A stretch of DNA of 64,000 bases from a phage. This document shows positions 12,145 through 30,912 of this stretch, one piece after another. Made by a program: the position numbers and the translations under genes. Each line of letters begins with the position of its first letter. The first letter of the stretch is position 1. Below the pieces are notes generated by a model that saw only the letters and a list, made by a program, of their open reading frames with translations, was not told where the DNA came from and did not search any database. The stretch lies in sequence record PZ452598.1; one strand, given 5' to 3'.

Positions 12145-12453
12145 TTAATCTTCTATGATATCTCTATCATATCCAAGTGAAATGAGAGTTTCTTTGAAGT
12201 GTTTAATGTTCTTTTGTCTAGAATCATTAATGAAAATGACTGGATAACGAATGTTAAGAGATGTGAATCCAGCGCGTTTAGCAAGAGATACAATCAGCGG
12301 ACGATCATACTCAATCTTACCATTATTTGTAAGAACTTTATAGAAAGTAAAAGGAGCATTGAGCTCCTTTAGAAGTTTTGTAACTGATTGACATCCAGGA
12401 CAACGACCTACTTCATCTGGAATTCCATAGACTTCAATCTTATTTTGTTTCAC
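12145..12453 (-). CDS. nrdH: glutaredoxin-like protein NrdH (102 aa)
   Basis: CPGC redox motif near N-terminus (GRCPGCQSV); adjacent to nrdG/nrdD. Confidence 0.75.
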   Translation of the reverse strand: MKQNKIEVYGIPDEVGRCPGCQSVTKLLKELNAPFTFYKVLTNNGKIEYDRPLIVSLAKRAGFTSLNIRYPVIFINDSRQKNIKHFKETLISLGYDRDIIED

Positions 12454-12786: not shown

Positions 12787-13257
12787 TTAATCATGTTTCC
12801 ACACCCCATCGGTATTTGACCAAAGTCGCTGATTATCTGATCCTCGCCACAGCTTTTTGGTCGGAAGATTTTTCTCATACTTCCCATCAATAATAACATC
12901 AACATATTTAAGCATTTCTAGTTGTTTAATATCTTCAAACTTATATCCTGTCCACAACCAGATATCTTTCTCCGGAAATCTTGCTTTAACCCAAGAAACT
13001 AAATTTGAAATCTCTTCTCGGTTCTGTGGATAAAGTGGGTCACCGCCGGTTAAGGTAAGGCCTTGGATATACGATTTGCTTAAATGGGACGCAAGTTCTT
13101 TAACGGTATTCATAGTGAATAACTGTCCGTTACGAGCATTCCAAGTACTACGATTATAACAACCTTCGCATTTATGCAAACATCCAGTGACGAAGAGAAC
13201 GACCCTACATCCAGGGCCGTTAACGAAATCGCATGGATAAATTCTATCATAATTCAT
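12787..13257 (-). CDS. nrdG: anaerobic ribonucleotide reductase activating protein NrdG (156 aa from MNYDRIYPCDFVNGPG)
   Basis: radical-SAM style cysteine cluster CxxxCxxC (GCLHKCEGCYN); host NrdG-like N-terminus; ORF track 184-aa version is an upstream extension. Confidence 0.85.
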   Translation of the reverse strand: MNYDRIYPCDFVNGPGCRVVLFVTGCLHKCEGCYNRSTWNARNGQLFTMNTVKELASHLSKSYIQGLTLTGGDPLYPQNREEISNLVSWVKARFPEKDIWLWTGYKFEDIKQLEMLKYVDVIIDGKYEKNLPTKKLWRGSDNQRLWSNTDGVWKHD

Positions 13258-13879
13258 CTTTATATTTCCAAGTATATCCCTTATGAATAGATTGAATTCC
13301 TTTGCAACATTTATAAACAGCAGAATGAAAAAATCCTGCATTTCTTATTTCAGTTGCTCCAGTTAGTTCTATTGTATTTCCGTCTGGTGAATAGCCAATA
13401 ACCGTTTTGGTGTTAAAGCGATTTCTAGAACTATTTTTGATATGCTCTTTATGATTAGTAGACAAAGTTCTTCCTGTTAGCCCATCAGATATCCTTTTTC
13501 CAAAATCATCAGGAAGAGTTACTTTAGACCTAGCTATGCTCATTAGCTTCTTAGTTTTATCGCTTCTTTTTGCGCCACGCTGATTTTCAAATTTCTTAGC
13601 TTTTGCATACGCGTATTGTGAAGAAGTAACTTTTCTATGCTTACTATTACTCATTATCCAATATGCATCATACATCTTTCCACCATATATTTTAGCCAAT
13701 AAATGGTGAGCAGTATAGTGGGCCTTATAAGTTAAAAATACTAAGTTGTCTAAATCATCTGAACCACCCATACTTCTTGGAATTATATGATGAAGTTCAT
13801 ACCCGGCTTTAGTTTGACGGGGCTTAGATGGGTGTTCAGCAGAATTAACTAGATTTGAATAGATTCTGTCATAATTCAT
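13247..13879 (-). CDS. mobC: HNH homing endonuclease (210 aa; mobC-like) inserted between nrdD and nrdG
   Basis: HNH motif ELHHIIPRSMGGSDDLDNLVFLTYKAHYTAH; C-terminal NUMOD-like repeat; overlaps nrdD stop and nrdG start. Confidence 0.65.
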   Translation of the reverse strand: MNYDRIYSNLVNSAEHPSKPRQTKAGYELHHIIPRSMGGSDDLDNLVFLTYKAHYTAHHLLAKIYGGKMYDAYWIMSNSKHRKVTSSQYAYAKAKKFENQRGAKRSDKTKKLMSIARSKVTLPDDFGKRISDGLTGRTLSTNHKEHIKNSSRNRFNTKTVIGYSPDGNTIELTGATEIRNAGFFHSAVYKCCKGIQSIHKGYTWKYKDEL

Positions 13880-15155
13880 TGGTGCTTAACCCTATGCATG
13901 ATTTCTTTATTTTTACCGAGATTAAATCCGCGTTCGTTCGGATTTCCCAAATAACCACATGTTCTTCTTATGGTATTCATCTTTTTAGGATCAGTTTCTC
14001 CACAAATAGAACAAACAAATCCGTTTTCAGTAGGAGTCATTTCATGGGTACTTCCACATGTAAAACATTTATCTACTGGCATATTAACACCAAAATAATC
14101 TAAATGCTGTGCAGCATAATCCCACACGGCCTCAAGACCTTTTAAGTTATTTTTCATATCAGGAAGTTCAACATAAGAAATGTGACCACCTGTCGCAATG
14201 AAATGATATGGCGCTTCACGAGAAATCTTTTCAAACGGAGTAATATTTTCTTCTACTGAAACATGGAAACTGTTAGTGTACCAGCCTTTATCGGTAACAT
14301 CTTTTACGCTTCCATATTTTTCTGTATCGAGTTTACAGAAGCGATAACACAGGTTTTCAGCAGGAGTCGAATATAAACTAAAAGCAAATCCGGTTCTTTC
14401 AGTCCACTGTTTAAGATGAGCATTCATTTTAGTTAAAATTTCTCGTCCAATATCACGACCGACAAGAATATTCAATTCGTGAATACCAATGTATCCTAAA
14501 GACACTGAACTTCTACCGTTTTTAAATAACTCAATTATGTCGTCATCAGGTTTAAGACGAACCCCGAATGCACCTTCTTGGTAAAGAATAGGAGCAACAG
14601 TAGCTTTAACTCCTTTTAAGGAACTAATTCTACACATCAAAGCTTCAAAACATAAATCCATTCGTTCATTAAATAGCTCAACAAATTTCTGTTCATTGAA
14701 CTGTGTTCCAATATAAGAATCTAACGCGATGCGAGGAAGATTCAGTGTTACAACACCAAGATTATTGCGTCCATCAAGAATTTCATTGCCAGTCGAATCT
14801 TTCCATACGCTCAAGAAACTACGGCAACCCATCGGAGAAACAGGAACAGATGAACCAGTGATAGCTTTATTGTTCTTAGCTGAAATAATATCAGGATACA
14901 TCCTTTTGCTTGCGCACTCTAGAGCAAGCTGTTTAATATCATAGTTCGGATCGTCTTTATAAAGATTAACACCTTCTTCAACGAACATAACAAGCTTAGG
15001 GAAAATAGGAGTTATCCCATCACGACCAAGACCTTTAATACGATTTTTCAGAATTGCTTTCTGAATCATTCGTTCAGTCCAGTCAGTTCCCGTACCAAAT
15101 GTAATTGTTACAAAAGGAGTCTGTCCGTTTGAACTGAATAACGTGTTCACTTCAT
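13876..15155 (-). CDS. nrdD: anaerobic ribonucleoside-triphosphate reductase NrdD, exon 2 (C-terminal 425 codons, glycyl radical domain)
   Basis: ORF lacks ATG; C-terminal glycyl radical motif RRTCGYLG and CxxC...C zinc site (CFTCGS...CSICG); joins in frame to exon 1 across intron giving 605 aa. Confidence 0.85.
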
Positions 15156-18167: not shown

Positions 18168-18472
18168 TTTTCACACCACCAACTGCTTACTTCAAAATCG
18201 GGTTCGCCATGTTCCCAGAACCAGGGGCCGATAGGAATCCACTTACCTTCATCGGTGACGTCATATTCTTCGGATTTAAGCCCAACGTATCGCCATTCGA
18301 CTTCATAAGCGGTACCACCGATTACAACTGTGTTCTCGCCATACGGGTTAGACACAACAAAGTCTATACCTTCTGCTTTAGCTAACCAAATCATGTATTC
18401 ATAGAGTTTATATTCCAGGTCGCCTTCTGTTCCATCGCCTAGAAAAATAATTTGTTCATTTAATTCTATCAT
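18164..18472 (-). CDS. hypothetical protein (102 aa)
   Basis: ORF with overlapping start/stop to neighbours. Confidence 0.45.
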   Translation of the reverse strand: MIELNEQIIFLGDGTEGDLEYKLYEYMIWLAKAEGIDFVVSNPYGENTVVIGGTAYEVEWRYVGLKSEEYDVTDEGKWIPIGPWFWEHGEPDFEVSSWWCEK

Positions 18473-18732
18473 TTAAAGTATTCCCGCAATTGGTCAAATC
18501 CACCAATATGACTTCCATCAGGAGCAAATACCTGAGGCATTGTTAAGCCGATTTGAGTATCACGACCTAGTTTAGTCAGAAGCTCAGCAATTTTCTCATC
18601 ATCAAAAACACCTTTTTCCGGCATAATGTTGATAAATTCAAACGGCTGTTTCTTCACAGTCAAAAGACGTTTTGCATTATCGCAATACACACATTTATGA
18701 ATGTTGCTATCATAACCATATACTTTAAACAT
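18469..18732 (-). CDS. nrdC: thioredoxin/glutaredoxin NrdC (87 aa)
   Basis: CVYC active-site motif (KCVYCDNAKRLL), 87 aa. Confidence 0.85.
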   Translation of the reverse strand: MFKVYGYDSNIHKCVYCDNAKRLLTVKKQPFEFINIMPEKGVFDDEKIAELLTKLGRDTQIGLTMPQVFAPDGSHIGGFDQLREYFK

Positions 18733-24227: not shown

Positions 24228-24253
24228 TTTGTGTTCCTCCGTAGTTGATAGTT

Positions 24254-24287
24254 GTATAGTACCACAGCTCAAACGGAAAGTAAACCG
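24254..24287 (-). promoter_or_regulatory. early promoter GTTTAC-N18-TACTAT with conserved leader CAACTATCAACTAC
   Basis: plus 24280-24285 gtaaac, 24256-24261 atagta. Confidence 0.5.
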
Positions 24288-27783: not shown

Positions 27784-28245
27784 TCATTGAGTTTTAATTA
27801 CTGCTTTAGAAGCCTTTCCTGGTAAACGACGACTGTTGATAATTGCCATCCTACATTGAAGTGACGGGTCTTTGAACTTCTCGTTAGGTTTACAAACTGT
27901 AAATCCAAGCCAAAGATTTCCATCTGTGATTTCTAAACGTCCAGGACGATATTCAACCCCATCAATAAAATCCTCGTCAATGTCAGGACGCGGAGGCATA
28001 CTCAGGAATTCATTAACTTCTAAAACATGGTCTTTTATTTTATGGAATAATTCAAAAACGTATGTCTCATCAATCTCCCGTTGAATTGCGCGATCAAGAA
28101 GATGTTGAGAATATTTTAGATGAAACGATGAGACTCCTGCTGCTTTTGATGCCTCACGAATCTCATTGTTAATTTGACGAAACTCCGACTCAAAGTGACG
28201 ACGAAGCTTATTTCGACGGATAAAAACTTCTGTATTGATAGTCAT
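27784..28245 (-). CDS. regB: endoribonuclease RegB (153 aa)
   Basis: 153-aa ORF MTINTEVFIRRNKLRRHFESEF...; size/position match T4 regB. Confidence 0.75.
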   Translation of the reverse strand: MTINTEVFIRRNKLRRHFESEFRQINNEIREASKAAGVSSFHLKYSQHLLDRAIQREIDETYVFELFHKIKDHVLEVNEFLSMPPRPDIDEDFIDGVEYRPGRLEITDGNLWLGFTVCKPNEKFKDPSLQCRMAIINSRRLPGKASKAVIKTQ

Positions 28246-28270
28246 GTTATTCTCCTCTTAACTGATAGAA

Positions 28271-28305
28271 AAATTATACCACAGTCAAGAGGAAAAGTAA
28301 ACAGT
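28271..28305 (-). promoter_or_regulatory. early promoter GTTTAC-N18-TATAAT upstream of regB
   Basis: plus 28298-28303 gtaaac, 28273-28278 attata with TGTGG extended -10. Confidence 0.55.
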
Positions 28306-28625
28306 TATTCTTTAAATCTAATCAATTTATTCATAGACTTTGAAACTTCGGCACGAACCTCATGTAGATTTTTGAGCTGTTCAAGACGCTGCGTATAGTA
28401 AGCAATTTCATCTTCTTCGAGACAGTCCTGCGAATCTTCTTTAAGATAACGTGCATAGTCCTGGAAAGCGTTACGGACTACTTCCTGGAAGTCATCAAGA
28501 CTTTGAATTTTCTTAGGAGCAACAGATACACGACGAGGGGCAGTATAATACTCATAACCAAACCCTGCGCTTAATTGAGCCATTAGTATTTTTCCTCTGG
28601 TTGGAACACTGCACGACAAGCCCAC
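28305..28625 (-). CDS. hypothetical protein (106 aa)
   Basis: ORF. Confidence 0.45.
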
Positions 28626-28885
28626 ATACTGGCTTCTTTGAGTTTCGTTTTAGCAATAGTTAACTGATCGAGACTTTCAGCATAATTCTTCGCGAATTCA
28701 CAGTCTTCGCAATTATCTAGTGCTTCCCAGAATTCATCATATAAAGCATCAAAGATAAGTCCTAAACGAACTTCAGCGTCTTTAATAGCATTTACTTTAC
28801 CGATTTTCTCTTCAGTATGTGGTTTATAACCCTTAATATCTTCAATCATATTTGACTTCCTCACCAGTACATAAATCGTATTCAA
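28583..28885 (-). CDS. hypothetical small protein (100 aa or 88 aa from MIEDIKGY); positional vs.4, candidate cyclic-oligonucleotide sponge Acb2
   Basis: position in regB-denV small-gene block; identity not verifiable by eye. Confidence 0.4.
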
Positions 28886-29063
28886 CTAAACGAATAGGTT
28901 CATGAATGCCATAGCCTTGAACAGAAATTTCTGTCGTAGGATAAATTCCATCAATATCACCCATATTCCACGCTTCATTAAATTGCTGTTCGCCTGAGTT
29001 ACTAAACCACTCGGCGAAAGCATTTAGCACATCTTCAGAACCTTCAATAATTATCTTTGCCAT
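28842..29063 (-). CDS. hypothetical acidic protein (73 aa)
   Basis: ORF. Confidence 0.45.
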   Translation of the reverse strand: MAKIIIEGSEDVLNAFAEWFSNSGEQQFNEAWNMGDIDGIYPTTEISVQGYGIHEPIRLVEYDLCTGEEVKYD

Positions 29064-29425
29064 TACAAACTTTCAGTAAAGGTACGAGCGATAACGTCGC
29101 GCTGCTGTTCCGGAGTCAGAGAGTTAAAGCGAACTGCATAACCGGATACACGGATGGTCAGCTGCGGATATTTTTCCGGATGCTTAACTGCATCTTCCAG
29201 AGTTTCACGACGCAGAACGTTAACGTTCAGGTGTTGACCACCTTCAATTTTAACTGTAGGTTGTGGCTCAATTTCAATTTCACGGGCATGCAAACCATAG
29301 AAAATTTCTGGGTCTACAAAAGAGTCCTCTTTAAAGGTTTTAGAGACAATAATTCGTGCTTGAATACCATCTTCAAAATAAATAGTACCTTTATGTGTGC
29401 CTTCAAGAATTTGATATGCTTTCAT
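29063..29425 (-). CDS. glycyl-radical cofactor protein (GrcA/YfiD-like, 120 aa)
   Basis: C-terminal RVSGYAVRF glycyl-radical signature and [10 protein letters not shown] block as in pyruvate formate-lyase C-terminus/GrcA. Confidence 0.75.
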
Positions 29426-29432
29426 ATAAACC

Positions 29433-29762
29433 TCAATTAGAAAATAAATTTATCCAAGATTGTTCTTTAATTAAAAATGGCTCAGAATCATATGCCATTA
29501 AACTTTGCGTAATTAATCCTTTAAAAGGTCCATCAATAAATTCCATGGTAAAATATGGAATTTTATTCATTAGCCGTGCATTAGGAGCAGTGCACAAAAC
29601 TCTGCATCCTTTGAATACGCCTTTTTGTAATTTGTATTGCTTGGGATAAAATTCGCTCAAAATGTTATTTTTTGCCAAAATTTCAAAATGATTCACCAAT
29701 TTATTTTTAATAGTTTTTGGCGAAAAATAAAGATATTCGAAAAGCTGAGTGTCTGTCATCAT
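29433..29762 (-). CDS. hypothetical protein (109 aa from MMTDTQLF)
   Basis: ORF; start overlaps stop of upstream P-loop gene. Confidence 0.4.
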
Positions 29763-30409
29763 TGCATTCCGATTACGAAAAACTGTGGACGAGTAATACC
29801 ACCAATGCAACATTTACTATTACAGCAGTAGTGTACGGTGTCAATATGGACACTATAAATCTTATCCATATCAGGAGATTTGACAGGCTCATCAATTATA
29901 TACAAAATTCGCGAAAGCTTTAAACCTCTGAACTTGCTTCCTTTATTACCAATAAAACTGCGTACAGAATCAGTAAATAAACGAAAACGTATATCATCAT
30001 TAGAATAACGCGAAAATTCCTTTTTGATGTTATTTGCAGAAATTTTAGCATAAGCTGAAGTATTAGAAAGAACAATAACTGTTCCGCCATCATACAACCA
30101 ATTAGCAGCAAAGTTAGTCACAGCAATTGATTTACCGGATTGACGTCCACCATCTAGTCGAAGTGTACAATACTGTTTAAGTAAGTCTTCAAATGGCGGG
30201 ATATATTCGTTTTTACAAATTTCTTCTACTCTAGCATCAGAATGGTGTGTAAAAGCATTCATCAGGGATAGATAAGGACCAGTTAAAAATGTTCTCATTT
30301 CTTCTCTATAAGTTTGGGCCATTCCGTGGCGCATGAATTGTCCATTTCTGTATTTACCCATTACCGCGCTTGGGCTCGACCTTATTACAGGTTGGCGGGA
30401 ATCCCTCAT
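29759..30409 (-). CDS. P-loop NTPase-like protein (up to 216 aa)
   Basis: Walker A GGRQSGKS and Walker B-like ILYIIDEP. Confidence 0.5.
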   Translation of the reverse strand: MRDSRQPVIRSSPSAVMGKYRNGQFMRHGMAQTYREEMRTFLTGPYLSLMNAFTHHSDARVEEICKNEYIPPFEDLLKQYCTLRLDGGRQSGKSIAVTNFAANWLYDGGTVIVLSNTSAYAKISANNIKKEFSRYSNDDIRFRLFTDSVRSFIGNKGSKFRGLKLSRILYIIDEPVKSPDMDKIYSVHIDTVHYCCNSKCCIGGITRPQFFVIGMQ

Positions 30410-30435
30410 ATAATCATGAGGTCCAGGTTGTTCCC

Positions 30436-30852
30436 TTATGCATAAATCGCCTTACCGTAGTATTTGTACCAAGTAGGACGTTGTGCAATTTTTTCATCTA
30501 AACGAGCTTGTGATATAGCAATAGAAGCTTCATGGGGAATATAATCACCACGGAATTCCTGAGGAATATCACTAATATCCTGGACTGTAGTATCCTTGAT
30601 ATTAAAACCACGTTTTAAACATTCAGCTATAAGCTCAATTTGACGTTTACGTAAGAACTCGAGCTTATCGTAAAAGAATGTAACATGACCTGCGCCAAGG
30701 ATAAAAGTAGGACTGATTTTAAAATCACGAACACGTTTACCGTTAGCAACATGCTTACGAACTGCACCAAAAACACGCGGCAATTCACGATATTCAGCCA
30801 TTAAGTGTTGGTCAGCCAATTCAGATACTAAAGTAAGGTTGATACGAGTCAT
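30436..30852 (-). CDS. denV: endonuclease V, pyrimidine-dimer DNA glycosylase (138 aa)
   Basis: sequence [34 protein letters not shown]... matches recalled T4 endo V. Confidence 0.9.
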
Positions 30853-30880
30853 TTTAGTGTTCTCCTGTAGTTGATAGGTC

Positions 30881-30912
30881 TATAGTATCATACCTACAGG
30901 AGATGTAAACTG
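30881..30912 (-). promoter_or_regulatory. early promoter GTTTAC-N17-TACTAT upstream of denV
   Basis: plus 30905-30910 gtaaac, 30883-30888 atagta; flanked by inverted repeat CCTGTAG/CTACAGG. Confidence 0.5.

Follow-up and report, generated by a model that had tools for sequence, protein, structure and literature searches.

The finding of a small open reading frame ending in a glycyl-radical signature within a virulent phage raises the question of which enzyme such a stand-alone domain would serve, and of how the phage acquired it. The window analyzed here is a stretch of 64,000 nucleotides (PZ452598.1), for which the initial annotation had proposed a 120-amino-acid GrcA/YfiD-like spare part near the anaerobic RNR genes. 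The open reading frame was found on the minus strand at 29063..29425, with an ATG start and with the C-terminus and RVSGY motif as described. T4 records were 100% identical over the coding sequence, and a megablast comparison of the vs.6 region with bacteriophage T4 records likewise gave 100% identity. In NC_000866.4, the open reading frame is entered as vs.6 (T4p117, NP_049730.1), and its product, Vs.6, is named "autonomous glycyl radical cofactor GrcA" there and Y06I in the literature; the T4 homologue of YfiD mentioned in the initial annotation is this same protein. A single vs.6-type place per record was present in the T4 genomes of the phage collection. The gene is therefore already known, annotated in RefSeq, and biochemically characterized. 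From the combined data, it is very probable that Vs.6 is a phage spare part of the GrcA/YfiD type that rebuilds the pyruvate formate-lyase (PFL) of the host after cleavage by O2.

Vs.6 has a computed mass of 13.8 kDa and contains no cysteine. It is a small protein that stands alone, its gene having a separate start, ribosome-binding site, and stop, and is not the C-terminal end of a large glycyl radical enzyme. From the translation and alignments, the glycyl-radical loop RVSGY was placed at residues 92 to 96 (29138..29152, minus strand), with the GGT codon of Gly95, the equivalent of PflB Gly734, at 29141-29143 on the same strand. Codons 61 to 118 (29072..29245, minus strand) encode the structured glycyl-radical domain, corresponding to GrcA residues 68 to 125, and were delimited by alignment with E. 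coli grcA. Codons 1 to 60 (29246..29425, minus strand) make up a phage-type N-terminal half, as judged from composition and hhalign. A GAGG Shine-Dalgarno sequence at 29431..29434 (minus strand), located 5 nt upstream of the ATG, overlaps the TGA stop of the upstream gene vs.7, and the stop of vs.6 overlaps the start of vs.5 in the sequence TAATG (29061..29065, minus strand), an arrangement indicative of translational coupling. The gene order in NC_000866.4 is a tightly packed minus-strand run of denV, vs.8, vs.7, vs.6, vs.5, vs.4, vs.3, and regB. Promoter and terminator scanning around vs.6 returned sites no more numerous than in shuffled sequence. Consequently, no dedicated vs.6 promoter is claimed, and the gene is predicted to be transcribed within a vs.8-vs.7-vs.6-vs.5 unit, with no separate promoter signal.

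Some further features of the neighborhood were recorded. The vs.5 gene (28842-29063, minus strand) encodes 73 amino acids here and in recent T4 sequences and 58 amino acids (177 nt) in the NC_000866 annotation; across 28000-30900, indels totaling 8 nt separate NC_000866 from the window. The second gene downstream of vs.6, vs.4 (28586-28849, minus strand), matched PDB 7uq2 "Vs.4" with an E value of 1.9e-57. A related phage has it annotated as "anti-CBASS protein 2," and it belongs to a PHROGs family of unknown function.

The similarity of Vs.6 to glycyl-radical proteins was far beyond chance. The Pfam Gly_radical model matched with an E value of 2.8e-18 (66.8 bits; cutoff, 22.2), E. coli GrcA (PDB 6owr) with 8.6e-42, and PflB residues 697 to 759 with 5e-26 over 63 residues. 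The last 60 residues of Vs.6 were identical to GrcA 68 to 127 at 60/60 positions, and Gly95 was invariant among the phage and host sequences compared. The stand-alone GrcA/YfiD-type identity proposed in the initial annotation was thus borne out, with the RVSGY region being homologous to the C-termini of both GrcA and PflB.

The N-terminal half was more distant. NCBIfam model TIGR04365 (spare_glycyl) matched Vs.6 with an E value of 3.7e-45, residues 20 to 120 aligning to positions 25 to 126 of 126, but because of the divergent N-terminal half, the score of 153.3 bits lay below the equivalog cutoff of 170, although the RefSeq name is still GrcA. Given this divergence and the subcutoff score, binding and regulation may differ from those of GrcA. 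Within phages, PHROG 1209, the family of Vs.6-like proteins, matched over the full length (1.2e-62; residues 1 to 120 to profile positions 1 to 121 of 121). When the N-terminal 60 residues were used alone, only 4 cluster representatives were matched among 1.84 billion proteins, all of them short phage-like proteins, and homology to the GrcA N-terminus was undetectable with this single sequence in that set. Profiles were needed: in hhalign, the N-terminal halves of the phage profile and the bacterial GrcA profile aligned over 59 columns with 96.7% probability, an E value of 3.3e-10, and 29% identity. Phage sequences of an intermediate type were also present among the IMG/VR loci. These comparisons point to the whole vs.6 gene, and not its tail alone, being an old, diverged phage homologue of grcA.

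YfiD and T4 Y06I, spare parts of ~14 kDa, are reported to restore O2-damaged PFL in vitro after installation of the radical by PFL-AE (PMC8683613, which gives Wagner et al. 2001, BBRC 285:456, as its source), and they are named there as the only two validated spare-part proteins. In YfiD, residues 61 to 127 form a structured half that copies PflB 693 to 759, while residues 1 to 60 are disordered yet needed for binding of cleaved PFL and for efficient activation (PMC8683613). The N-terminal half of GrcA is likewise disordered in the 6OWR structure. A corresponding mechanism can be proposed for Vs.6. Reaction of O2 with the glycyl radical of PFL would cut PflB at Gly734, with loss of the C-terminal 26 residues. 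Vs.6 would then dock on the cleaved PflB, probably using its N-terminal half as the binding element by analogy with YfiD, and its C-terminal domain, close to PflB 700 to 759, would replace the lost strand, loop, and helix and thereby supply a new glycyl loop. Placement of the radical on Gly95 by the host radical-SAM activase PflA would render PFL active again. Under T4 infection, host gene expression ceases and host DNA is broken down, and the infected host is therefore unable to make GrcA or new PflB. A phage-expressed copy would sustain the fermentative supply of acetyl-CoA and ATP in the microaerobic gut throughout infection, including under O2 fluctuations, and it is in this that we infer the benefit of vs.6 to the phage in vivo.

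In T4-infected E. coli, vs.6 (T4p117) is classed as an early RNA and a middle protein in the supplement of PMC9697503, indicating that the gene is expressed during infection. It is also one of 11 T4 open reading frames of unknown function that PMC1524935 lists as conserved throughout its set of five T4-like genomes. The initial annotation had regarded the role of the protein during infection as not established; its biochemical activity has been reported, in the form of in vitro rescue of PFL by Y06I (PMC8683613). The searchable literature yielded neither an infection phenotype for a vs.6 mutant nor a functional study of a phage grcA as an auxiliary metabolic gene.

The divergent N-terminal half allows a different reading, in which Vs.6 would be a modulator that competes with PflB, TdcE, or GrcA for PflA, or caps cleaved PFL, and redirects fermentation. 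The half that is the binding and activation element in YfiD is only about 29% identical to that of the host and is conserved as a phage-specific family, and recognition or regulation could accordingly differ. Set against this, Y06I is reported to restore rather than inhibit PFL activity (PMC8683613), and the Gly loop and every other residue of the domain are identical to those of a functional host protein. A pure inhibitor would not need such complete identity, which counts against that role, and modulation was considered improbable.

For repair of host PFL to be the preferred reading, the phage's own glycyl-radical enzyme must also be weighed as the client. NrdD is itself cut at its glycyl radical by O2, and Vs.6 could in principle be its spare part, with activation by NrdG. 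As the initial annotation had stated, the phage carries NrdD, NrdG, NrdH, and NrdC in addition to the stand-alone domain, and all of the genes were located in the window: nrdH at 12145-12453, nrdG at 12787-13257 (Fer4_12, 2e-50), nrdD with exon 2 at 13876-15150 and, with its intron, extending to about 16.7 kb (Pfam NRDD, 2.7e-122), and nrdC at 18469-18732. Their claimed proximity to vs.6 holds at the scale of the early gene region but not in the sense of neighboring genes. The four genes lie 10 to 16 kb from vs.6. Dozens of genes separate vs.6 from nrdD, which is about 12 kb away in the window and about 17 kb away in the T4 reference. The distance is shorter here because the window lacks about 4.8 kb present in every T4 record.

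The absent block corresponds to NC_000866 53926-58741 (about 4.84 kb), with the junction at 24247-24267 of the window, and comprises nrdC.9, nrdC.10, nrdC.11, mobD, and mobD.1 to mobD.5, which were present in all T4 records of the phage collection. At the junction, the two flanking sequences share 21 nt, which is what a deletion between short direct repeats would leave. The absent segment and this overlap indicate that the source was a T4 deletion variant and not the reference strain.

True adjacency of a vs.6-type gene to nrd genes was observed only in Aeromonas and jumbo phages. In Aeromonas phage PX29 (locus L007, 2023-3447), the order is nrdD-nrdG-vs.6-nrdC-nrdH, and in jumbo phages of ~350 kb, the cluster reads nrdD-orf-grcA-orf-orf-nrdG, for example in Yersinia phage fHe-Yen9-04 (L124, 2779-7043). 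The nrd-cluster loci comprised L007 and L144 together with the jumbo-phage loci L121, L123, and L124. The placement of a grcA-like gene inside the nrd cluster of two unrelated phage lineages suggests that the gene may be regulated together with anaerobic functions or that a link in function may exist. As a separate observation, the glycyl loop of the jumbo-phage NrdD (L124, 2779-4599) reads RRVSGY and shares the five-residue core of PFL and GrcA, while that of T4 NrdD reads RRTCGY.

Such clusters, the encoding of NrdD and NrdG by T4 itself, and the nucleotide-metabolism role guessed at for vs.6 in PMC1524935 would all fit repair of NrdD. However, nrd genes were within 5 kb of the grcA-like gene in only 4/80 phage loci, and the similarities of the protein lie elsewhere. 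When Vs.6 was compared by BLASTP with the C-terminal exon of NrdD, the E value was 1.5 and the glycyl loops were not aligned; the NRDD Pfam model gave no match in Vs.6; and Vs.6 lacks cysteine, whereas the NrdD tail contains a CxxC...CxxC arrangement along with its RRTCGY loop. The Vs.6 domain is instead 100% identical to that of host GrcA and close to PflB 697 to 759. Repair of NrdD, which had been suggested in the initial annotation, was rejected at the level of sequence on the basis of the BLASTP result and was considered less probable still than modulation.

The DNA of vs.6 proved to be a mosaic. Identity to E. coli grcA was about 45% through codon 60 and 100% over the 174 nt of codons 61 to 118; the last two codons differed again, and the tract thus ended 6 nt short of the vs.6 stop. 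The 5' half was AT-rich, phage-type sequence with a GC3 of 0.19, compared with 0.41 in the tract, the same as in E. coli grcA; the overall GC of the tract was 0.49. Among E. coli genomes, 100% matches to the tract exist, and 5156/5426 carried it at an identity of at least 99%. The next-closest hosts were clearly more distant: the corresponding segment matched at 172/174 positions in an Escherichia cryptic clade, 161/174 in Citrobacter, and 145/174 in Salmonella, with the same or nearly the same protein encoded. Divergence among host grcA genes was even along the gene, E. coli and Salmonella agreeing at 170/201 positions in the 5' part and 145/174 in the 3' part, and the direction of transfer is therefore taken to be from host to phage. 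The earlier suggestion of a horizontally acquired, host-like C-terminal half was strengthened by this identity at the DNA level.

Among phages, the tract was distributed bimodally. Tequatrovirus and Mosigvirus sequences matched E. coli at 169 to 174 of the 174 positions, while the other lineages (T4-like phages of Klebsiella, Enterobacter, Cronobacter, and Aeromonas, RB49, T5-like, and jumbo phages) matched at 111 to 150. Expressed as identity to E. coli, the tracts of the Klebsiella, Enterobacter, Cronobacter, Yersinia, Aeromonas, and T5-like phages were at 64 to 86%. Outside Tequatrovirus and Mosigvirus, no phage tract reached 92% to grcA from 80 enterobacterial and Pasteurellaceae species, a set without K. 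pneumoniae. About 500 phage records carried the tract at an identity of at least 95%. Between T4 and Mosigvirus RPN187, 17 of the first 59 codons differed, 10 of them synonymously, compared with 0/58 within the tract, and the last 3 codons all differed. The absence of differences within the tract implies that it is younger than the split of the genera or has been homogenized since. These patterns support the view that the 174 nt represent a recent host-to-phage conversion tract restricted to Tequatrovirus and Mosigvirus, where the 3' half of an old, full-length phage grcA lineage was overwritten by E. coli grcA DNA.

The 5' endpoint of the tract was the same in Tequatrovirus and Mosigvirus. 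The 3' endpoint, at codons 115 to 118, varied: T4 has ACT GAA, as in E. coli, and phages ECML-134 (L095) and VEc74 (L093) have ACC GAG, which resembles other phage genera. PinkRuby (L094) was listed with these two as a Tequatrovirus showing a variable 3' endpoint. The variation within Tequatrovirus hints at more than one event. It is conceivable, though doubtful, that the match to the host is maintained actively, either because E. coli chromosomal DNA converts the phage gene again and again or because newly converted alleles sweep from one phage genus to another. The tract variant of Mosigvirus SHSML-52-1 reached at most 97.7% in all 5426 E. coli genomes, its SNPs being private to the phage, and repeated allele-matched conversion therefore gains no support from it. 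The tract data would be explained equally well by one recent acquisition that then spread through recombination among phages.

Two other phage groups showed related features. In Klebsiella phage KP179 (L003, 1501-1863), GC3 was 0.20 in the 5' half but jumped to 0.55 in the 3' half, which was nevertheless only 84 to 90% identical to any host gene compared, K. pneumoniae grcA not being among them; it may be an older host-derived tract from an unsampled species. In T5-like phages, a GrcA-like gene of 122 amino acids lies in the tRNA cluster, directly after tRNA-Met (Salmonella phage Spc35, L006, 1402-1869). In the conserved domain, the DNA of this gene shared only about 75% identity with E. coli grcA, and the gene thus has no recent host tract.

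In spite of the 174 identical nucleotides and the shift in GC3, it is scarcely credible that the phage picked up the host-like half recently by chance and derives no function from it, or that this half arose as an artifact of assembly or of laboratory handling. Conservation contradicts such a reading: the tract replaces, in frame, the homologous part of a preexisting phage gene, it recurs in about 500 independently sequenced natural isolates and in the T4 sequence X04567 from the 1980s, homologues with intact Gly loops were found in T4-like, T5-like, and jumbo phages, in 1589 records altogether, and vs.6 RNA and protein are listed as made during infection (PMC9697503).

The additions made here to the understanding of this gene are modest, namely the homology of the whole gene to grcA, the bounded 174-nt tract, and the embedding of the gene among nrdD and nrdG in two other lineages. 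The DNA-level identity between vs.6 and grcA was not mentioned in the searchable papers, a search outside which Wagner 2001 and the T4 genome reviews fell, and it is not claimed as new. It does provide a clean marker of recent homologous exchange from host to phage that could be used to measure the frequency of such exchange. Should repeated conversion be true, the PFL-fitting part of the phage protein would track the host allele in lock-step, and the locus would be a natural, datable case of ongoing homologous exchange in which a virulent phage receives sequence from the very chromosome that it degrades. Whether it benefits a lytic phage in the gut to repair a fermentation enzyme of its host is a directly testable question on auxiliary metabolism at low oxygen.

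Of the known systems, Vs.6 as a PFL spare part is closest to E. coli GrcA (YfiD; NMR structure, PDB 6OWR). Both are stand-alone proteins of ~14 kDa with identical last 60 residues, including RVSGY, and homologous N-terminal halves, and in vitro rescue of PFL after activation by PFL-AE has been reported for Vs.6 as well. Vs.6 differs in being seven residues shorter, with an N-terminal half only about 29% identical and a score below the TIGR04365 cutoff, in being expressed from the early/middle program of the phage rather than under host regulation, and in being encoded by a DNA mosaic with a phage-type 5' part and a host-type 3' part. With the glycyl radical domain of PflB (residues 697 to 759; PDB 1H16 and 2PFL), it shares the same strand, Gly loop, and helix element and a 13-residue motif. 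Unlike PflB, it has neither an attached 10-stranded barrel nor catalytic cysteines and could thus act only in complex with cleaved PflB. The glycyl radical domain of T4 NrdD belongs to the same superfamily, both proteins matching Pfam Gly_radical, is encoded by the same phage, and likewise has an O2-sensitive radical site; pairwise similarity is nevertheless lacking (E = 1.5), and the zinc-ribbon cysteine cluster and the RRTCGY loop are found in NrdD only.

A broader parallel is provided by cyanophage psbA, encoding D1, a phage-carried replacement of a damage-prone host protein for which intragenic recombination between host and phage copies has been reported. The logic is the same in both cases: once host expression has been shut off, a component of host energy metabolism that turns over fast or is easily damaged is provided by the lytic phage, and mosaic exchange with the host copy has occurred. 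The proteins and hosts are different, and the damage is caused by O2 in the case of Vs.6 and by light in the case of psbA. Furthermore, psbA supplies a whole subunit, whereas what Vs.6 would replace in the damaged enzyme is a single domain of 60 residues.
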